Assembly (NCBI GenBank): GCA_016937995.1
Contig: JAFGVM010000008.1
Location: 1-52,251, forward strand
Length of the DNA stretch: 52,251 bases
From: Candidatus Delongbacteria bacterium
GTDB lineage: Bacteria; UBA4055
Direction: 5' to 3'
Within the stretch, counting starts at the first letter, position 1; every line of letters starts with the position of its first letter. The notes beneath the pieces are model-generated. The model saw only the letters and a list, made by a program, of their open reading frames with translations. It ran no database searches and had not been told where the DNA came from. Below, piece after piece: positions 43,229-52,251 of the stretch. A program made the translations under genes and the position numbers.

Positions 43229-44533
43229 TTAATTTTTATAGGCATTAATTTCATTAGAAATGTTTTTAATGTCAAGCATTACTTTTTCTAAATCTAATTT
43301 CAGGAATTTACGTTTTTTCAGAATTAACTTACCGTTAATGATCACCGTATCCACATCACTACCCTTTGCACAATAAGTTAAATGCGAGTACGGGTCATAC
43401 ATAGGTGTTAAATGAGGTTTTTTCACATCTATCATTATAAGGTCTGCTTTTTTTCCTACTTCCAAAGATCCGGTCAAATTATTTATACCAAGTACCTTTG
43501 CTCCGTTAATAGTTCCCATTTTCAATACTTCCCTGGCATTCATAACAGTTGAATCGTTGTAAAGCGCTTTATGGATCTTCACCGTTATACTCATCTCTTC
43601 GAACATATCCAGATTGTTATTGCTTGCAGGTCCATCAGTTCCGAGAGAAACAGTTAAACCGCTTTTTATCATTTTTGGTACTTCAGCTATCCCGCTTGCC
43701 AATTTTAAATTACTTTCAGGTGAATTCACTATCCCAACATTTCGTATTTTTAGGATATTTATATCATTATCAGTCAAATGAACACAATGAACAGCAATTG
43801 TTCTATGGTTCAGAAAATCAATACTGTCAAGATATTCAACAGGTGTCATTCCCGTCCGGTCTTTTATCAAATTTACTTCATCCAGTGTTTCAGAAATATG
43901 AATATGAACCGGTAAATTATTTTCATCAGATAATAATTTTATTCTTTGAAGCAGCTCTTTACTGCATGAATATGGAGAATGTGGAACAATAGAAGGTATA
44001 ATCAGATCATCATTTGAGTATTTCTCGATGAACTCAATAAAATATTTTTCGGATGTTTTTTTTACAGATGCCGGAAAATCTATGACAGCCTCTCCAAGAA
44101 CAGCCCTCATTCCAATTTCTTTACAGTTCTCTGCAGTTGTACCGGTAAAGAAGTACATGTCATTGAAAGTTGTAGTTCCAGACAATATCATTTCAGCTAT
44201 TGCAAGCTTTGAAGCTATTCTGACATTTTTCTCTGTCACGAATTTATCCTCGAGTGGCCAGATATAATTATTCAACCAATTCATCAAAGAAAGATCATCT
44301 GCTACACCCCTGAACATGGTCATACCTGAATGAGTATGTGAGTTGATCAAACCGGGCATAATGATATTATTTTCCGCATCAATGATCTCTTCGGCACTAC
44401 AGTTAGGTTTAGTTGCACCTAAGTAAGTTATTATATCATTTTGGATCCCGATAAATCCATTATCGAATAAAGTCATTTTACTATCCATCGTCAGTATGAC
44501 GGCGTTCTTTATCAAAATGTCAAATTTTATCAT
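43229..44533 (-). CDS. Amidohydrolase, MtaD/5-methylthioadenosine-SAH deaminase-like (start likely 44533)
   Basis: MPGLINSHTH, SGTTTFNDMY, PHSPY, HISET, ESNLKLASG, LGTDGPASNN, GSLEVGKKAD. Confidence 0.9.
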   Translation of the reverse strand: MIKFDILIKNAVILTMDSKMTLFDNGFIGIQNDIITYLGATKPNCSAEEIIDAENNIIMPGLINSHTHSGMTMFRGVADDLSLMNWLNNYIWPLEDKFVTEKNVRIASKLAIAEMILSGTTTFNDMYFFTGTTAENCKEIGMRAVLGEAVIDFPASVKKTSEKYFIEFIEKYSNDDLIIPSIVPHSPYSCSKELLQRIKLLSDENNLPVHIHISETLDEVNLIKDRTGMTPVEYLDSIDFLNHRTIAVHCVHLTDNDINILKIRNVGIVNSPESNLKLASGIAEVPKMIKSGLTVSLGTDGPASNNNLDMFEEMSITVKIHKALYNDSTVMNAREVLKMGTINGAKVLGINNLTGSLEVGKKADLIMIDVKKPHLTPMYDPYSHLTYCAKGSDVDTVIINGKLILKKRKFLKLDLEKVMLDIKNISNEINAYKN

Positions 44534-44708
44534 TTTACAGTAACCTTTTTTATTCTTGAGTCCTTTCATTATAATAAGAATACGATACAAAAGCAAAATA
44601 TTATTATCATTTCTGAACACTGTTGGATCACAACAAAATATCGATCAAGTTCGTGTGAAGCTATCATTAATCATACTGTAAGGGATCAAGTGTACTTATT
44701 TTACATTT

Positions 44709-44804
44709 GCCTATTAAACCAAGAACATAACAATCTGTTCACGCTAGTTGTTATGGCGCAACGCCAAATTGAAGTAAAAAACTAATTAATCATGAGGAGG
44801 ATTC
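44709..44804 (+). promoter_or_regulatory. Conserved structured 5' leader, copy 1 (candidate cis-regulatory RNA)
   Basis: GCCTATTAAACCAAGAAC identical to 48489; stem CATAACAA/TTGTTATG; GCG-CAA-CGC; GAAGTAAAAAA; TAATCATGAGGAGGATTC. Confidence 0.6.
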
Positions 44805-47800
44805 ATGAAAAAATTCCTTGTTGCAGTTTTAGTTATTTCAGCCATGCTGTCTGCCGCTTTTGTAGATCAGACCAGAGCTAAAAAAGTAGCTGAAAATTAT
44901 TACAAGAACTACGCACCGGCTTCCGCTAAAGGTAACACAGTGCAAAAAGTAGCTGAAAAGTTATATAATGGTCAGGTAACATGGTATGCAGTATCGTTCG
45001 ATCAGGGATTTGTTATCGTTTCAGCTGATGATGCAGTGAGATCGATACTGGGATATTCGTATGATGGTGAGATCACAGAAGATCTTTACAACATGCAAAA
45101 TCCATTCATTAACAGATTTGACGCATATGACAAGCAGATCGTAGAGGTTAGAGAAACAGGTTATGTGGACAATGATGCACAAACTGAGTGGAAAAATATC
45201 GAAAATAATATTTTTCCAAAAGCATCAAAAGCAATTGTTGTTGATGCTTTGGTAGAATCAAGATGGGGTCAGGGATGGCCGATGAACACATTATGTCCTC
45301 TTGACGGTGGTGTTGAAACAGCTGTTGGTTGTGTTGCAACTGCTATGCATCAGATCATGAGATTCCACAGAGCTCCATTGAATGGTATTAGTTCACATTC
45401 ATATTTCTGGACAGGTTCATCAAGTTCAGGAACTTTGGCGGTAACATTCTCTGATTATAGCTATGATTATGATCTTATGCCATTAACAACTTCAAGTGTA
45501 ACACAGGCAGAGCTGGATGAACTTTCAAAATTATCTTATCACTGTGGTGTTTCTGTTGATATGGATTATGATATTTTTGCGAACGGTGGATCCGGTGCAT
45601 ATTCTACAGATGTTGTTTATGCTTTAGAAACTTATTTTGGTTTCTCAACAGATGCGACATATATATCTGTAAATACGCCAACCGACCCTACAGTTCAGGC
45701 AACAAACATACAGACTGATCTTGACAACAGTCGACCAATATATTGGTCAGGCTCAGGTGTCGATGGTGGTCATGCTTTTATTCTTGACGGCTATACAAAT
45801 GACTACTGGTATCATTTTAACTGGGGTTGGAATGGTTCTTCAGATGGTTGGTTCCAGCTTACTTCATTAAATCCAAATAGTGACTTCACATCAAGTCAGG
45901 CAGCAGTATTCCACATATGGAGTAATGAATCCGAATATGCAGAATGGCCGGCACCTTCAAATTTGGGTGGTTCTATTGCCAACGGAGAAGATGTAACATT
46001 AACATGGACAGCTCCAGCTGGTACAAAGTTAGCTACATTGACAGGTTATAAGATATTTAGAGGTGGTGTTCAAATAGCTACTACTAATGCCTCAACAACT
46101 ACTTATCTTGATGCTGACCTTTCAGCCGGATACTATAATTATTTAGTCAAGGCAACTTATTCAGGTCCGGATGGAGAATCCCATATTTCAAATAACTACT
46201 ATGCAGCAATCGTACCTGATGAAAATTACCCAATTCCTTTGTACGTTGAAGCTACAGTAGCACCTTTTACAAGACAGGATGTAGATCTTGTTTGGACAAA
46301 GCCGTTTACACTTCCAGTATATTTCACAGAAGATTGGGAAACAACATCTTTCGAAACAGACTGGCTGACCAGAAGAACAACCAGTGTTTATGGCGGGAAT
46401 AATGATAATTTCCAAGATGGCACTCCAGCTGATCCAAACTGGTTCCATGAAGATGGCTCAGGTTTAGGTGTAGAGTATATTCATTCAGGATCATGGTCTG
46501 CGGCAATTGGTTATACAGCCCCGGATTTTACATGGTTGTTTTCACCGTTTATTGATATAGGTGCAAACTCAGAATTAAGATATTGGGTATGGTGTACAGG
46601 TAATGCTGGAAGTGGTTGGTTGACCAACTACTACATTAACCTTTATAACGGAGATATGACAGAAAGAAACCCTTCAGGTAACGTATACAATGTTGCTCAA
46701 TACATAGGTATAGATGAAGTTTCCGGACAGCAGTATGAAACTGAAGTTGTAGTTGATCTTTCAGCTTACACAGGTAGTTATCGAATTGCCTTTGTTTATG
46801 ATTACACTGACGGATTTCAAATGGCTATAGATGACATTATGGTTGCTGCTGCTTCAAAGCGTGCTCCTGCTGTAAATCCGAATGCGTCACACGAAGTACC
46901 GGAAAGAATTGCAGTTTCTTCGATTTCACCGGATACTTCAGATTTACCGGCAATGAAAGTAACAAAAGCTGCAAAAGGTGACGAACCTACTTCTTATGAC
47001 ATTTATAGGAATGGTTCGTTCGTAGAGAATGTTGCTGTTACCGGTGCTTCGGAAGTTTATTCTGATATTGGTTTCGTTGACGGTAATAACGAATATTTCG
47101 TTAAAGCTCTATATCCTACCGGAACATCTATTGCTTCCGCAAGATCTACAGCTTTCATGGATGCAAATCCAAAACCAGATTATCTTACCGGAATTTTGAA
47201 TGGTTCCAACGATGTGGATCTAAGCTGGTACAAACCTTATTCAAATCCACCGATGTGGTACACATATGCACCAGAATTTGACAGTGCATGGGATTTTATT
47301 GATGGATATGAGACACGTTTGAACAGAACAAGATTCCTAAGTGACCTTGGTTATTTCTATCCTTGTACTGTAGACTCTATAGCAGCAGCATTCTATGAAT
47401 ATACAGATGATCCTTGGCTAAGTGACCAATTCACATTCAAAGTTTACACAACTGATGGTGCCGGAGCGGATTCACTTATCTGGGGTCCAAGTCCTGCTCA
47501 AACAGCTACAAGTGGTTTTTTTAACACATTGGTAGTACCTTCATTATATATGGTCAAAGGATGGTGGGTTGAAATCGATCCTGCTGATAATACAAAAGGA
47601 CATCCTGCTATCATGGTAGACATTCATGATGAAGCAGGTGCAAGTACCAGTTCTTCGACTTACTTAAATGACGGAGCAACAGTTGATGGTTGGTATTCGA
47701 TCAGCTTTGGTGATGAAGGGTATCCTGGAGACTGGATGATCATGAGTTACATTACTTCAGCAACAGCACCTGACGTAACTAAGAGTGGATGGGTCGGTAT

Positions 47801-48308
47801 CACTGAAAGCATGAAATCAACTTCATCTGAGATATTAAATGCGAAAGCGAAGGTTAAAGAAGTTTACGGAAGTGTTGAAAGTAAAATTGATACCAAAGGA
47901 ATGACAAACTATAACATCTACAGGAACGGATCATTACTGGGTACTTCAGCACTTACGACTTATACTGACCTTAATCCAGTTGCGGGTGACAACACTTACT
48001 ACGTAACAGCAGCTTACACTAACCCTGTTGGGGAATCAGCTGGAACTAACTCTGTTGTCATTAATGTAACCGGTGGACCTGTAATTCCGGAAGTTCCTGC
48101 AAATGTCGTTACAAGTATTGTAGGTTCTAACTTGGTAATAGATTGGGATGTATCCGCTGATGCAACAGGATATGATGTTTACTCATCAGATGATCCTTAC
48201 GGAACATTTACATTTACTGCTTCTGTAGGTACAAATCAGTATACCGTTGCAGCAAGCCAGGCGAAACTGTTCTATTACATTATTGCAACAAACACCACAA
48301 AGAAATAG
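44805..48308 (+). CDS. Secreted C10-family (streptopain-like) cysteine protease with prodomain, FN3-like and cleaved-adhesin-like domains and the shared C-terminal domain
   Basis: Signal peptide; prodomain GFVIVSADD...ILGYS; WGQGWP, catalytic VGCVATAM, GGHAFILDGY, HFNWGW. FN3-like VTLTWTAP..GYKIFR; adhesin-like FTEDWE...WLFSP...IAF...IDDI. Confidence 0.9.
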   Translation: MKKFLVAVLVISAMLSAAFVDQTRAKKVAENYYKNYAPASAKGNTVQKVAEKLYNGQVTWYAVSFDQGFVIVSADDAVRSILGYSYDGEITEDLYNMQNPFINRFDAYDKQIVEVRETGYVDNDAQTEWKNIENNIFPKASKAIVVDALVESRWGQGWPMNTLCPLDGGVETAVGCVATAMHQIMRFHRAPLNGISSHSYFWTGSSSSGTLAVTFSDYSYDYDLMPLTTSSVTQAELDELSKLSYHCGVSVDMDYDIFANGGSGAYSTDVVYALETYFGFSTDATYISVNTPTDPTVQATNIQTDLDNSRPIYWSGSGVDGGHAFILDGYTNDYWYHFNWGWNGSSDGWFQLTSLNPNSDFTSSQAAVFHIWSNESEYAEWPAPSNLGGSIANGEDVTLTWTAPAGTKLATLTGYKIFRGGVQIATTNASTTTYLDADLSAGYYNYLVKATYSGPDGESHISNNYYAAIVPDENYPIPLYVEATVAPFTRQDVDLVWTKPFTLPVYFTEDWETTSFETDWLTRRTTSVYGGNNDNFQDGTPADPNWFHEDGSGLGVEYIHSGSWSAAIGYTAPDFTWLFSPFIDIGANSELRYWVWCTGNAGSGWLTNYYINLYNGDMTERNPSGNVYNVAQYIGIDEVSGQQYETEVVVDLSAYTGSYRIAFVYDYTDGFQMAIDDIMVAAASKRAPAVNPNASHEVPERIAVSSISPDTSDLPAMKVTKAAKGDEPTSYDIYRNGSFVENVAVTGASEVYSDIGFVDGNNEYFVKALYPTGTSIASARSTAFMDANPKPDYLTGILNGSNDVDLSWYKPYSNPPMWYTYAPEFDSAWDFIDGYETRLNRTRFLSDLGYFYPCTVDSIAAAFYEYTDDPWLSDQFTFKVYTTDGAGADSLIWGPSPAQTATSGFFNTLVVPSLYMVKGWWVEIDPADNTKGHPAIMVDIHDEAGASTSSSTYLNDGATVDGWYSISFGDEGYPGDWMIMSYITSATAPDVTKSGWVGITESMKSTSSEILNAKAKVKEVYGSVESKIDTKGMTNYNIYRNGSLLGTSALTTYTDLNPVAGDNTYYVTAAYTNPVGESAGTNSVVINVTGGPVIPEVPANVVTSIVGSNLVIDWDVSADATGYDVYSSDDPYGTFTFTASVGTNQYTVAASQAKLFYYIIATNTTKK

Positions 48309-48379
48309 CTAAGACCTAACATGATTGTGATGCAATTATGAAGACGATAACTTTATCTTGGTAGTGCAATCATATCTCA

Positions 48380-48420
48380 CATGCAAGAACCCTGTTCTGG
48401 GGTTCTTGCATGATTTTATT
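48380..48420 (+). terminator. Intrinsic terminator after the first C10 gene
   Basis: CATGCAAGAACCC-TGTTCTG-GGGTTCTTGCATG followed by ATTTTATT. Confidence 0.8.
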
Positions 48421-48452
48421 TTGAAAAAATCACCTTCAATTAAATTTAAAAC

Positions 48453-48585
48453 TTGACAACACCTCATTTTATTTTGTATTTTTACTTCGCCTATTAAACC
48501 AAGAACATGGTAGATCTGCAAGGAATTATCATGGCGTATCGCATACTGGAAGTAAAAAAACTTAAACTAATCATGAGGAGGATTC
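48453..48585 (+). promoter_or_regulatory. Promoter plus conserved structured 5' leader, copy 2
   Basis: TTGACA-N18-TATTTT, then from 48489 GCCTATTAAACCAAGAAC; stem CATGGTAG/TTATCATG; GCG-TAT-CGC; same RBS block as copy 1. Confidence 0.62.
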
Positions 48586-51500
48586 ATGAAAAGATTCCTT
48601 ATTGTAGTGCTAGTAATTTCTGCAATGTTGTCAGCTGCATTCGTTGATCAAGACGGTGCAAAACAAGTGGCAGAGAATTACTATAAAAATTATGCACCGG
48701 TTTCTGCTAAAGGAAACGAGGTGAAAGATATATTTGCTCATAAGTACGAAGGGCAAATAACATGGTACGGTGTTTCATTTGATCAGGGATTCGTTATTGT
48801 AACTGCTGATGATGCATTAAAGCCGATCTTAGGTTATTCATTCGACGGTAAACTTGTAGATCCTGAAGTAAGGGACGGCGGATTTGCTTTCAAAGAGTGG
48901 TTTGGCTATATGGACAAACAAGTTTTAGTAGCAAGAAAATATAACTATGTTGATGCTAAGGCTCAAACTGACTGGAAAGACATTAGAAATAACATCTTCC
49001 CAAGCTCATCAAAACTTACTTATGTTGATGCATTGGTAAAATCACACTGGGATCAGGTCTATCCTTGGAACGACTTATGTCCTGAAAAATCTATCGGTAC
49101 ATGGACTTATGTTGGTTGTGTTGCTACAGCAGCTTCAATGATCATGAGATATCATGAGTGGCCTCCTACAGGAGATGGATCAAATTCTTACTCTTGGGAT
49201 GGTCGTACTCTTTCTGAAACATTCTCAAATTATACATTCGATTACACAGTGATGAACCACGATGTAAACATAGAGTGGGGACTTTATCCTGAGTACTGGG
49301 AAACTATTGATATGGATGCGGCAGCTATTCAAAACCTGGCAGAATTGAACTATCTTGTAGGTCAGTCTTTTGACATGAACTATGGTGATACTGCTGATGG
49401 TGGATCCGGTGCTAATATGAGCACTGCTTCTACTGCGATGAACACTAACTGGAGATATGTATCTACATACAATACTGTTGGAACACCGACAGATCCATCT
49501 TACATTGCTTCAACTATCCAGGCAGAGCTTGATGCTAAGAGACCTTGGTGGTGGGCAGGTGGAGTTCACTCGTTCATCCTTGACGGATATGCAGATGATT
49601 ACTGGTATCACTTCAACTGGGGTTGGGGTGGTTATCAAGATGGTTGGTTCCAGATCACATTCCTAGTTCCTGACGGTGTTGGATCAGGTGGAGGTGACGG
49701 AGACTATACAGCAAGTCAGATAAGAATATCTTTAGTTCCTGATACAAATCCTTTCACTGCTTGGCCGGCACCAACCGGATTCAACGGAACTTTAGTTAAC
49801 GGTGAAGACGTTCAGTTATCATGGAACGCAGCATCAGGTGCTCAAAGCTATAATGTATGGAAAGCAACTGATATGGCCGGAGCAGTACTTCTTGCGAACA
49901 CTGCAAGTACTTCTTACAATGATAACGATCAAGTGACTGGAGAATACTCTTACTTTGTATCTGCAGTTTACAGCGATGGTGAATCTCACCACACAGACTC
50001 ATACTCAGTTCTTATTGAACCATCGGTTAATTTCCCAACAACAAGATCTTTTGCAGCGGTAGCAGATGGAAGAACAAGTGTTGATCTTACCTGGTTAGAA
50101 CCGTTTACTGGATTTACAAATTTCTTAAATGATTTTGAAGGCGGTGTTATACCTGCAGATTGGTTCCAAAAAACAACAACTGCGCTACCTCCTGATTATA
50201 AAGGCAGTTCAGACAATGTAAGTGATCCAAAACCTCCGGATCGTAGCTGGTTTAAAGACGATTTACTTGATGAGATCAGATTGTTAGATGCTACAACTGC
50301 ACCTCATATTGTATTCAGAGGTGAATATGCATGTATCTTTGCTACTTCAGCGACTACTCATCTATGGCTGATGTCTCCTAACTATACTTTCAATTCAGAG
50401 CATTTCTTCAAATTCTGGACAAGATTCAAGTATGGTGATGGTGCAAGTGGAACTCAGCACCAGATATTCAGTGTGGTTTCTTACGCCGGTGATTTTACTG
50501 ACCAGGCAACTCCAACTACTATCACTACGATAGGTACTTGGGACAGTGCAATTGACCCGACCAACGAATGGGAAAGTGAGTGGAATGTAAGTTTAGCTTC
50601 TCTTGCAGGCCAAACAAAGCACGTTGGTATCATGGTTGAGGCAAATGACAATGATTACTATACTTTCACAATTGACGATATTCTTATCGGTTCTAATTCC
50701 GGTGGAATTGCAGATGATCCAACAGGAATAGCGATCTACAGAAACGGTTCTTTAGTGACTACTGAAACCGGAACTGCTACAAGCTGGACCGATACTAACT
50801 TTGTTGATGGTGATAACACTTACTATCTAAGAGCACTTTACCCAACAGGTGAGTCTTTAGCTTCTAAGTGGATCACAGTGAATATGGATGCAAATCCAAA
50901 ACCTGATTATCTTACAGGCGTTCTTAATGGTTCTGATGATGTTGATCTTGCATGGTATATGCCATACGGAACTCCATCACACTGGGCAACATTGATCGCT
51001 CCTGAGAACTGTACAACTACAGTAGATTACCTTGAAGATACTGATTGTGCTAAAAGAAGAGCTGAAATGAAAGCTGAAAACCTAGGTCTTTATTACCCTG
51101 TAACAATTGATTCTATTGCCGGTGGATTCTTTGAGTGGGATGATGATCTATGGGGATCAAACACTACATTTGTTATCAGACTTTGGGATGGACATCCTCT
51201 TACTGGTTATACTACAACTGTAGGTGATAACTTATTGTATGAAAGTGGTGTATTAACCGCGACACCTGGTGAAGTATACGCAGTTGACTGTGGAACTCAT
51301 GTGTTAAATGGAACTTGGAACGTTGAAGTTGAAACATTTGATACAGCAACAGGTCACCCATCCACTTTAGCAGGTCCTTCAACAGGTGGAATTAACTGTT
51401 ACTTCTTCTACACATTAGAAGATTCATATAACTACTATATTTCTTCAGGTCCAGATCCGTTATCTTACTGTTTAATGGCTTACTGTACAGGTGCGGATCC

Positions 51501-52014
51501 AACAGATCCGTTCAAGTCAGCATGGTCATCATCAGATGCAACATATGAGAAGAAACCTGTTATTGACAATTCAGGAAGATTAGTTGGTGATGCAGTTACT
51601 AGCCCTAAAGCAATCGCTCAGTACAACATTTACAGAGAAGGTGTCCAGATTGGTACTTCTGCTACAACCAGTTATACTGATACAAACCCTGTTGCTAACG
51701 TTGACAATACTTACTACGTTAAAGCTGCTTACACTAACCCTGTTGGTGAATCTGCTGCTTCTAACTCTGTAGTAGTTGCCGGCCCTACAGGCGGTTCACC
51801 TGATCCAGATGTTCCTGCTAATGTAGTTACAAGTATAGCAGGTGCTAACTTGGTTATCGACTGGGATGTTTCAGCAAACGCTACAGGATATGATGTTTAT
51901 TCATCAGATGATCCTTATGGAACGTTCACACTAGCAGCTTCTGTTGGTACAAATCAGTATACTGTACCTGCAGCATCAGCTAAGTTATTCTACTACATTG
52001 TTGCAACTAACTAA
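48586..52014 (+). CDS. Second C10-family multidomain cysteine protease (paralog of 44805-48308)
   Basis: Same architecture; WDQVYPWN, VGCVATAA, GVHSFILDGY, HFNWGWGG; near-identical C-terminal domain. Confidence 0.9.
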   Translation: MKRFLIVVLVISAMLSAAFVDQDGAKQVAENYYKNYAPVSAKGNEVKDIFAHKYEGQITWYGVSFDQGFVIVTADDALKPILGYSFDGKLVDPEVRDGGFAFKEWFGYMDKQVLVARKYNYVDAKAQTDWKDIRNNIFPSSSKLTYVDALVKSHWDQVYPWNDLCPEKSIGTWTYVGCVATAASMIMRYHEWPPTGDGSNSYSWDGRTLSETFSNYTFDYTVMNHDVNIEWGLYPEYWETIDMDAAAIQNLAELNYLVGQSFDMNYGDTADGGSGANMSTASTAMNTNWRYVSTYNTVGTPTDPSYIASTIQAELDAKRPWWWAGGVHSFILDGYADDYWYHFNWGWGGYQDGWFQITFLVPDGVGSGGGDGDYTASQIRISLVPDTNPFTAWPAPTGFNGTLVNGEDVQLSWNAASGAQSYNVWKATDMAGAVLLANTASTSYNDNDQVTGEYSYFVSAVYSDGESHHTDSYSVLIEPSVNFPTTRSFAAVADGRTSVDLTWLEPFTGFTNFLNDFEGGVIPADWFQKTTTALPPDYKGSSDNVSDPKPPDRSWFKDDLLDEIRLLDATTAPHIVFRGEYACIFATSATTHLWLMSPNYTFNSEHFFKFWTRFKYGDGASGTQHQIFSVVSYAGDFTDQATPTTITTIGTWDSAIDPTNEWESEWNVSLASLAGQTKHVGIMVEANDNDYYTFTIDDILIGSNSGGIADDPTGIAIYRNGSLVTTETGTATSWTDTNFVDGDNTYYLRALYPTGESLASKWITVNMDANPKPDYLTGVLNGSDDVDLAWYMPYGTPSHWATLIAPENCTTTVDYLEDTDCAKRRAEMKAENLGLYYPVTIDSIAGGFFEWDDDLWGSNTTFVIRLWDGHPLTGYTTTVGDNLLYESGVLTATPGEVYAVDCGTHVLNGTWNVEVETFDTATGHPSTLAGPSTGGINCYFFYTLEDSYNYYISSGPDPLSYCLMAYCTGADPTDPFKSAWSSSDATYEKKPVIDNSGRLVGDAVTSPKAIAQYNIYREGVQIGTSATTSYTDTNPVANVDNTYYVKAAYTNPVGESAASNSVVVAGPTGGSPDPDVPANVVTSIAGANLVIDWDVSANATGYDVYSSDDPYGTFTLAASVGTNQYTVPAASAKLFYYIVATN

Positions 52015-52039
52015 TTTTCAGTGACAACGTAGAGTTATT

Positions 52040-52067
52040 AAAAGACCCCGATCCGGGGTCTTTTTTT
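52040..52067 (+). terminator. Intrinsic terminator after the second C10 gene
   Basis: AAAAGACCCCG-ATC-CGGGGTCTTTTTTT. Confidence 0.88.
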
Positions 52068-52177
52068 ATTCATATTTTACAGTTATTTTTTATTTTACAC
52101 TTGACAAATTTCAACAAAAAACACTTATTTTTCATAATCAAAAAATACTCATGTGTAAAAAATAATCAGGAGGAGAG

Positions 52178-52251
52178 ATGAAAAAAATTATCGTAACTCT
52201 TTTAGTACTCGTAACAATTCTTTCTGCTGCATTCGTTCCACAGGATGTTGC
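52178..52251 (+). CDS. Start of a probable third C10 paralog (truncated by window edge)
   Basis: RBS AGGAGGAG; MKKIIVTLLVLVTILSAAFVPQDVA matches the LSAAFVxQ start of both upstream paralogs; TTGACA at 52101. Confidence 0.75.
   Translation, partial: MKKIIVTLLVLVTILSAAFVPQDV

Follow-up and report, generated by a model that had tools for sequence, protein, structure and literature searches.

Stem-loops near the 5' end of the message, together with strong Shine-Dalgarno (SD) sequences, stabilise the aprE mRNA of Bacillus subtilis and the ompA mRNA of Escherichia coli, as described in an excerpt of PMC7509114. Both mRNAs have long leaders and come from highly expressed genes for secreted or envelope proteins, aprE encoding a protease; in these respects, as in combining a stem-loop near the 5' end with a strong SD, they resemble the leaders described here. 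They have no sequence similarity to our leaders, their stem-loop is 5'-terminal whereas ours (P1) lies 17 nt from the probable 5' end, and, unlike in aprE and ompA, the most conserved part of our leaders is a tail predicted to be single-stranded. Ribosome standby sites, such as that of the tisB mRNA of E. coli, offer a second comparison: an unstructured 5' segment is followed by a partly structured ribosome-binding site (RBS). To our knowledge, no standby site has been found to depend on one particular sequence. Our leaders likewise begin with a tail predicted to be unpaired (probability 0.70-0.90 in all five copies) and have the SD or the AUG partly paired in every copy; they differ in that the tail is invariant (18/18), which suggests specific recognition.

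Delongbacteria possess large arrays of secreted C10 proteases, by which protein degradation in sediments is probably driven. We know of nothing on gene regulation in this candidate phylum, and among the matches listed for literature naming Delongbacteria, no title or abstract opening refers to RNA elements. Here we analyse a stretch of 52,251 nt (the window) from the 2.75-Mb, 97%-complete genome of an uncultured sediment bacterium, most closely related to Candidatus Delongbacteria MAGs; in it, two tandem C10 genes carry copies of one leader. We propose that this leader is a cis-acting module that sets the expression of both proteases post-transcriptionally, through mRNA stability or translation, and we give this reading a probability of about one half. 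The element itself is real, small and restricted to a genus. As a concrete element of ~100 nt it is open to testing, and alone it adds only modestly to the numerous orphan leader motifs of bacteria. A selected leader on two deeply diverged paralogs would mean that the cell coordinates the expression of both at the level of the mRNA.

Architecture of the two leaders

The genes concerned, with their signals, are as follows.

44805-48308, + strand: gene a, a secreted peptidase of 1167 residues in which a C10 domain is combined with an I69 inhibitor prodomain
48380-48412, + strand: intrinsic terminator of gene a, a 15-pair stem followed by a T run
48453-48482, + strand: promoter of gene b, TTGACA, 18 nt, TATTTT (10/12 matches)
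48586-52014, + strand: gene b, a C10 peptidase paralog of 1142 residues (PF01640, E 1.6e-40)
52101-52251, + strand: third tandem paralog, with a TTGACA promoter, a motif-free leader of ~40 nt and ATG at 52178, continuing past the window end

Gene a matches PF01640 (E 3.9e-51) and PF13734 (E 6.4e-12), and genes a and b are deeply diverged paralogs. Each is preceded by an untranslated leader of about 96 bases (a, 44709-44804; b, 48489-48585). The two leaders are identical in an 18-mer and in the ribosome-binding block; they also share an A-rich block and an 8-bp stem, the stem differing in sequence. As we read it, the module comprises about 96 nt of 5' UTR and roughly the first seven codons, leaders a and b being copies of it.

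44697-44702, + strand: TATTTT, putative -10 hexamer of gene a, read from the sequence
44709-44726, + strand: invariant 18-mer GCCTATTAAACCAAGAAC of leader a, the same in all five copies; the probable +1 is the G that opens it, and bases 1-17 are predicted single-stranded
44726-44755, + strand: hairpin P1 of leader a, predicted with 9 pairs (44726-44734 with 44747-44755), a 12-nt loop and a pairing probability of 0.97
44756-44764, + strand: GCG-CAA-CGC mini-hairpin of leader a, not conserved
44771-44782, + strand: A-rich block GAAGTAAAAAAC of leader a, conserved in alignment A3 with a single A/T change at the sixth base
44790-44825, + strand: ribosome-binding module of gene a, with SD GAGGAGG (44794-44800), ATG (44805) and codons 2-7
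48489-48506, + strand: invariant 18-mer GCCTATTAAACCAAGAAC of leader b, its first G 7 nt past the -10
48506-48533, + strand: hairpin P1 of leader b, predicted with 8 pairs (48506-48513 with 48526-48533) that include two G-U pairs
48549-48606, + strand: A-rich block of leader b, followed by the SD (48575-48581), the ATG (48586) and the first codons of the gene

Across the 2.75-Mb genome the 18-mer has exactly these two occurrences and one extra match at three mismatches on contig C68, and the similarity between a and b ends abruptly 5' of it. The 8-bp stem reads CATAACAA/TTGTTATG in leader a (44726-44733 / 44748-44755) and CATGGTAG/TTATCATG in leader b (48506-48513 / 48526-48533). Further downstream, GAAGTAAAAAA (44771-44781 in a, 48549-48559 in b) and the block AATCATGAGGAGGATTCATG are identical between the two. 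An earlier note on this DNA, which had listed the shared 18-mer, the stem that changes and still pairs, GAAGTAAAAAA followed by an identical RBS block, and a third paralog devoid of the motif, described all of these correctly. It had also reported a second, GCG-NNN-CGC hairpin that changes only in its loop; this is true between a and b, but the middle pair is broken in three of the five copies. No terminator-like site was found in the leaders.

The SD (GAGGAGG) lies 4 nt 5' of the ATG, is invariant in all five copies, is strong like that of an ompA/aprE-type stabiliser, and is predicted to sit in weak local structure. Two alternative weak helices are predicted in this module, TCATGAG/TTCATGA or GAGGAG with TTCCTT of codons 4-5; both are invariant and hence give no covariation test. 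Conservation extends into the coding sequence: between a and b, 18 of 21 bases and seven of seven third positions are identical in codons 1-7, against 5 of 15 third positions in codons 8-22. Because TTC and CTT are common codons of the genome (0.41 and 0.30), their invariance is weak evidence. A helix between the A-rich block and signal-peptide codons, predicted in some copies, was rejected because by eye it is not kept across copies.

Conservation of the leader

Only three further copies of the leader were found; they come from two other genomes of this genus and bring the total to five copies in three related genomes. Ortholog leaders are identical at 87/96, 88/96 and 88/96 positions, compared with identities of 0.51, 0.43 and 0.35 at fourfold sites, and the 150 nt upstream of them are 54-63% identical. 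The paralogous leaders a and b agree at 70 of 94 positions, compared with 0.44 at fourfold sites. Conservation of the leader while fourfold sites diverged indicates purifying selection. The b-lineage orthologs G000b and G001b, with 66/97 identical leader positions, are little above their upstream regions (58%) and fourfold sites (0.53), which places the constraint in blocks rather than throughout.

It is improbable that the leader is functionless, its similarity being a gene-conversion remnant between tandem paralogs in which the pairing was kept by luck. Conversion does occur, as the leaders of G001a and G001b (90/97 identical) share derived bases; these point to gene conversion and thus to few independent events. 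The first 30 residues of b are closer to a (0.80) than to its clade-mates (0.53-0.57). Single-sequence folding energies of the leaders are ordinary (z between -0.9 and -1.2), in keeping with such a remnant and counting against an RNA-level role. However, synonymous sites beside the leader have reached saturation, in comparisons of paralogs as well as of species, and a third-position identity of 0.47 over the first 40 codons of a and b excludes a recent conversion tract for these two leaders. Differences are, moreover, strongly clustered between blocks of at least 20 identical bases. When the inner part (22 bases) of P1 in leader b was randomised, an uninterrupted 8-bp stem was kept in 0.89% of 20,000 trials (chance retention, P ~0.009), and a hairpin of equal or greater stability with its ends paired arose in 0.4-0.6%.

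Pairing in P1

Across the five copies, 44 of 45 cells of P1 are paired and three of the nine pairs are altered on both sides, whereas slid registers pair merely 28-53% of cells. The six bases substituted between a and b are all transitions, and they amount to the changes claimed earlier: one double change from A-U to G-C, another from C-G to U-A, and two cases of A-U becoming G-U. RNAalifold independently predicts P1, whose 5' arm has a predicted paired probability of 0.64-1.00 in all five copies. Its covariation score was matched by 7 of 500 shuffles; five related copies from three related genomes put covariation significance beyond reach, and the independent events are few, roughly one diverged stem and two changes at pair 9. 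The loop of P1 and the linker that follows are the least conserved columns of the leader, and the loop differs between a and b types in both length (12-14 nt versus 12) and sequence.

The two G-U pairs and the transition-only changes fit an RNA rather than a DNA half-site. We conclude from these substitutions that P1 pairing is kept through compensatory transitions, G-U pairs included, that are meaningful only in sense-strand RNA. Since a single cell carries both stems and their sequences differ, it is unlikely that one DNA-binding protein reads P1 as an inverted repeat in both leaders. The earlier proposal of selection on RNA structure thus stands for purifying selection and for P1, and not for the mini-hairpin; its caution about a limited evidence base was apt, the search of related genomes having raised the copies only to five.

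The 5' tail and the start of transcription

In the b copies a perfect TTGACA is separated from the -10 by an 18-nt spacer, and the promoter of G001b is arranged as that of gene b (TTGACA, 18 nt, TATTTT). For gene a no good -35 was found, and its TATTTT was not picked up by a promoter scan set at 9 of 12. The spacing TATTTT-N6-GCCTATT is identical in all five copies. Judged from promoter spacing, transcription would start at the first G of the 18-mer, 7 nt past the last base of TATTTT, and the invariant 17-nt tail would form the free 5' end of the mRNA. The tail may then serve as a sequence-specific site for ribosome standby loading or for some protein or RNA, while P1, acting with the strong SD, would shield the message from decay and adjust initiation, and the SD or AUG could be transiently masked through pairing with the start region.

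A second -10-like hexamer, TATTAA, occurs inside the 18-mer and could put the start near 44724 or 48504.

This hexamer counts against the start proposed above. P1 would begin at +18 from the TATTTT-N6 start or about +3 from the alternative one; known 5' stabilisers sit at the 5' terminus, so a P1 at +18 also counts against our reading of the leader. If transcription started at ~44724/48504, or if the tail were processed off, P1 would be a classical 5'-terminal stabiliser and the 18-mer a promoter or a discarded piece. The TATTAA hexamers (44712-44717, 48492-48497) do lie 6-7 nt 5' of the AAC that opens P1, the genome encodes RNase Y and an RNase E/G homolog, and the stabilising stem-loops of ompA and aprE mRNAs are 5'-terminal (excerpt of PMC7509114). 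We nevertheless consider it rather unlikely: the TTGACA of the b copies is spaced 18 nt from TATTTT and not from TATTAA, no -35 fits TATTAA, and invariance at 18 of 18 positions is more than promoter function needs.

Contigs of four sequencing runs, two of them RNA libraries, were compared with the locus. One contig of a DNA run matches from 48466 onward and has a different sequence upstream. The RNA libraries gave one contig on leader b. This contig of 151 nt (48509-48659, three differences) joins leader b from +21 to the coding sequence. It is a weak hint of transcription of leader b, with DNA carry-over possible, and the absence of RNA-library contigs from leader a and the a-b spacer is uninformative. 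No partner factor of the leader turned up, which counts against our reading: searches of the genome detected neither CsrA nor Hfq. Among RNases, they gave no RNase J. A search for a trans RNA complementary to leader a gave nothing above chance: words of at least 11 nt are scattered genome-wide, and the longest, of 13-14 nt, are estimated to be at about chance level.

Comparison with known leader classes

The leaders share their position 5' of a protein-coding gene with the cis-regulatory families of Rfam, but no model matches them. At gathering thresholds Rfam gave no match in the whole window, in agreement with the earlier note, which had recognised no known family; at E up to 10 it gave seven sub-threshold matches in 44400-48800, none overlapping the leaders.

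The riboswitch-like role floated in that note did not hold up, and we regard a riboswitch or other ligand-sensing RNA as very improbable. In favour of one, the leader is conserved, precedes two co-functional genes, contains a structured element and may mask the SD. A ligand-binding core of several helices with conserved loops or junctions was looked for, but P1 is the single supported helix, its loop and the linker are variable, and the invariant parts are single-stranded runs rather than junctions. As to an expression platform, the predicted SD-masking helices are invariant and unlinked to P1, and there is no terminator after the leader.

Control by CsrA/RsmA finds little footing, as a search for PF02599 was positive in control genomes and negative in this 97%-complete one, and GGA is absent from the P1 loop of leader a. 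A leader-peptide attenuator or upstream ORF starting at the AUG in the 3' arm of P1 was rejected: it has no SD and no terminator, and neither frame nor length is conserved (10, 10, 38, 39 and 6 codons, with a 1-nt insertion shifting the frame in G001b). The candidate for an RNA thermometer is the 7-bp TCATGAG/TTCATGA hairpin, which is predicted in some copies, lacks covariation and is weakened at two pairs in G001b, one being G-U and one unpaired.

Distribution and related leaders

Covariance model R1, searched against all 16 genomes of the phylum, recovered the five copies at E 8e-15 or better and no others, the next match having E 0.3. BLAST with the leader matched five of 41 genomes, the window's own included; matches are full length in the genus copies only, and those in G013 and G008 cover only the SD block. 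With up to two mismatches, the 18-mer was found in the 16 genomes at the five copies and at two unrelated places. Its exact sequence occurs at 19 loci in metagenome contigs, none with the rest of the leader. In the data searched, the leader module is confined to one Delongbacteria genus. No general signal of a 5' hairpin was seen in other C10 leaders, judged from 11 with a recognisable TTGACA promoter among 21 upstream regions (z of the first 60 nt, -1.78 to +1.09). The 11-mer TGCCAAACTCA is also present in short gene-to-gene spacers that lack a recognisable promoter.

C10 genes of other Delongbacteria genera carry leaders of a second kind (type B), which resemble those of the genus studied here (type A) in having a sigma-70-like promoter, GCC at the probable +1 with AAAC within 10 nt, an A-rich composition, a length of 89-107 nt, and an SD GAGGAG(G) with TTCATG or TTTATG. 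They differ in that the invariant 5' word is not the 18-mer but the 10-mer GCCAAACTCA, found at the same place in six of six type-B leaders; they have no P1-like hairpin and contain an internal purine-rich element resembling GGGGGAGGA. Homology of the two types is a conjecture.

A different word at the same place is what a start-site operator would look like, and the 18-mer could be such a DNA-level operator or core-promoter element, read by one transcription factor for both genes, with P1 separate or incidental. Its fixed distance from the -10 in all five copies and the -10-like TATTAA within it agree with this. However, the 18-mer has no dyad or direct-repeat symmetry, conservation exceeds that of a typical operator in extending through the closing pairs of P1 and the A-rich block as far as the first codons, and the compensatory changes with G-U pairs in P1 would go unexplained. 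The presence of TGCCAAACTCA in spacers that look promoterless also argues against an operator, which we therefore hold to be unlikely.

A broader form of the RNA-level reading is speculative, and we put it forward as a doubtful possibility: in Delongbacteria, some of the secreted C10 proteases, and a few further secreted proteins, may have mRNAs that are marked by an invariant 5'-terminal word. The word would be GCCUAUUAAACCAAGAAC together with P1 in one genus and GCCAAACUCA in others, and would be read by a dedicated RNA-binding regulator or a ribosome-loading mechanism. If true, such marking would represent a new class of post-transcriptional regulon signal, specific to the phylum. The type-B leaders are found on genes that fall in the same clade as gene b.

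A shared 5′ leader precedes two C10 protease genes

The window has a tandem run of three C10 protease genes (44805-52251), each with its own promoter. Genes a (ATG 44805) and b (ATG 48586) encode large secreted peptidases, each joining an I69 prodomain to a C10 catalytic domain. Direct reading of both copies bears out the observation of the earlier note that an identical 18-mer opens the two leaders.

Leader 18-mers and gene terminators in the window
44709-44726, + strand: 18-mer of leader a, GCCTATTAAACCAAGAAC
48489-48506, + strand: 18-mer of leader b, GCCTATTAAACCAAGAAC
48380-48412: intrinsic terminator of gene a, strong
52040-52064: intrinsic terminator of gene b, strong

In both copies, the 18-mer is followed by a hairpin (P1), a short GC-containing linker, GAAGTAAAAAA and the block AATCATGAGGAGGATTCATG. 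Pairwise alignment of the two leaders shows similarity starting sharply at the first G of the 18-mer, with unrelated sequence upstream. The third paralog (start 52178) does lack the motif; it sits behind a terminator and has its own promoter and a short unrelated leader. Further C10 paralogs of this genome are found on contigs C2, C80, C23 and C24, and the protease-gene relatives in public genomes belong to MAGs titled Candidatus Delongbacteria.

The exact 18-mer occurs twice in the window's genome (2.75 Mb, 35% G+C, 97% complete). Among the 16 genomes searched, which represent both the family and, as sampled, the entire phylum, its exact copies are confined to the window's genus, with two further tandem copies in genome G001 and one in G002. 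A covariance model, one of the checks proposed in the earlier note, was trained on these five leaders, taking P1 as the structure; from the 16 genomes it recovered the same five (E 8e-15 or better) and no other match below E 0.3. An exact 18-mer scan of a metagenome collection returned 19 loci, none with the rest of the leader. No Rfam family matches either leader, in keeping with the initial impression of a new element. The 5′ leader is real, under selection and restricted to one genus, has a single supported hairpin, and is absent from Rfam.

Transcription start

In all five copies, TATTTT is followed by six bases and then the G of the 18-mer, and the b copies have an additional perfect TTGACA at an 18-nt spacer. 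From this spacing and the TTGACA we infer +1 at 44709 and 48489, so that the invariant 17 nt would form a free 5′ end; this tail is predicted to be unpaired (0.70-0.90). The rival of a 5′-terminal stabiliser with a downstream start draws on a -10-like TATTAA within the 18-mer, which could start transcription 2-3 nt before P1 and has no fitting -35. A 151-nt metatranscriptome contig on 48509-48659 joins leader b from +21 to the coding sequence; it fits a start upstream of P1 and does not itself prove transcription.

Near-identical contigs from two sediment metatranscriptome libraries of different studies match parts of both protease genes with 1-4 differences (45131-49200). This suggests that both genes are expressed in nature, with DNA carry-over possible. 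About 35-45 nt ahead of the inferred start, the a orthologs have TCATTAATCATA in common (window 44660-44675; upstream regions of loci L041 and L047), and a similar word, TTAATCATGA, adjoins the Shine-Dalgarno sequence (SD) inside the leader. This could be an UP-like element or a site for a protein.

Hairpin P1 keeps its pairing, probably as RNA

In the five-sequence alignment, P1 comprises columns 18-26 with 39-47, and 44 of its 45 cells are paired. Of the nine pairs, three are changed on both sides and two vary on a single side by way of G-U, which upholds the claim that pairing is kept while sequence changes. RNAalifold predicts P1 independently. The covariation score was reached in 7/500 column shuffles, and the percentage paired likewise in 7/500; with the 3′ partner shifted by 1-3 columns, pairing fell to 28-53%. 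When CAU and AUG were fixed and the 22 inner bases randomised, an 8-bp run persisted in 0.89% of trials and an equally or more stable hairpin with paired ends in 0.4-0.6%. The six bases substituted between the a and b stems are all transitions, pair 9 is C-G, U-G or U-A across a-type copies, and the two predicted stem energies are nearly equal (-7.8 and -8.0 kcal/mol). Counting against P1 are the single-sequence folding z-scores of only -0.9 to -1.2 and the small number of independent events behind its changes.

One rival reading is a start-site DNA operator, in which the 18-mer would work as DNA. The G-U pairs and the presence of two different stems within one cell argue for P1 acting as RNA rather than as a protein-bound DNA inverted repeat. 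The suggestion of a riboswitch fares less well, since a single supported hairpin does not make the leader riboswitch-like. The proposed GCG-NNN-CGC mini-hairpin, thought to change only in its loop, is also dropped, its middle pair being intact in just 2 of the 5 copies.

An AUG in the P1 3′ arm opens ORFs of 10, 10, 38, 39 and 6 codons. We reject a leader peptide because these ORFs lack an SD and the frame is shifted in G001b, the b copy of G001.

Selection on the leader and its origin

Differences among the five leaders are clustered, not spread: columns 1-20, the P1 closing pairs, GAAGT-AAAAA and the last ~20 bases are invariant, and the inner stem, loop and linker vary. Among the a orthologs of three species, the leaders are identical at 87/96, 88/96 and 88/96 positions, compared with 0.51, 0.43 and 0.35 at fourfold-degenerate sites of the same genes and 54-63% in the 150 nt upstream. 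The window paralogs a and b agree at 70/94 leader positions and 0.44 of fourfold sites. Their similarity is not a fresh conversion tract, as identity at third positions is only 0.47 over the first 40 codons. Codons 1-7 share 18/21 bases, including 7/7 third positions, and third-position identity falls to 5/15 in codons 8-22. A leader without function is the rival to selection. The b leaders of the window's genome and G001 are only 66/97 identical, which counts against uniform constraint.

Genes a and b fall in separate deep clades of the family (support 87/91 and 100/100, respectively) in a maximum-likelihood tree built on 24 N-terminal regions, from which G001b and some partial genes were omitted. 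Gene b is a mosaic: 48586-48675 resembles gene a (44805-44894), and the remainder resembles its clade-mates G001c and G001d. Its residues 1-30 are 0.80 identical to a and 0.53-0.57 to the clade-mates; from residue 90 the relation is reversed (0.21 versus ~0.8). This indicates that an old recombination in the genus ancestor carried the leader and signal-peptide start between the paralogs. In G001, the a and b leaders (L041, L015; contig C12) are identical at 90/97 positions and have derived bases in common in the P1 loop and at pair 9, evidence of later conversion between tandem copies.

Possible mechanism

A gap of 4 nt separates the SD GAGGAGG from the ATG. Folding predicts two weak helices here that exclude each other, TCATGAG/TTCATGA, which holds the AUG, or GAGGAG with UUCCUU of codons 4-5; both are invariant, leaving covariation uninformative on either. 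TTC and CTT are common codons in this genome. We consider it about an even bet that the leader acts after transcription on mRNA stability and translation, with the invariant tail as a putative specific recognition or loading site. The closest working analogues are the leaders of aprE and ompA, where a 5′ stem-loop and a strong SD occur together (PMC7509114). The window's genome (97% complete) encodes RNase Y and an RNase E/G homolog; RNase J, Hfq and CsrA were not detected in it, and no candidate for a complementary RNA partner stood out.

Leaders of other genera

In each of six genomes of genera g4 and g5, a single C10 gene carries another type of leader (type B), 89-107 nt long.

Type-B leaders
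L114, G010:C22
L116, G015:C159
L117, G009:C80
L120, G005:C12
L115, G012:C5
L096, G006:C72

All six open at the inferred +1 with the same ten bases, GCCAAACTCA, and have a TTGACA-type promoter at the same distance as for the 18-mer. Further along each leader come a purine-rich GGGGGAGGA-like element and a strong SD; no conserved hairpin was seen in the six. In the tree, these genes belong to gene b's clade. As a conjecture, the genus-restricted leader may derive from the type-B form (GCC..AAAC.CA).

Exact matches to the 11-mer TGCCAAACTCA number 15 across five genomes (reversed control, 2). Of 14 inspected, five are type-B leaders, and a further three lie 50-65 nt before other genes with signal-peptide-like starts and have no recognisable promoter.

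Short spacers with the 11-mer
L095, G010:C74
L100, G010:C74
L093, G009:C80

The two G010:C74 spacers begin right at the stop codon of the upstream gene, and CGGAA/TTCCG stand on either side of the 11-mer in G010; in such spacers it could be a processing or binding site. The ORFs behind it stop after 64 codons (L095, 1550-1741) and 69 codons (L100, 1546-1752). The second reads ...FFGEDW immediately before the stop; this resembles a W-x-x-x-C site of the thioredoxin type in which a selenocysteine codon, read through, might take the place of the first Cys.
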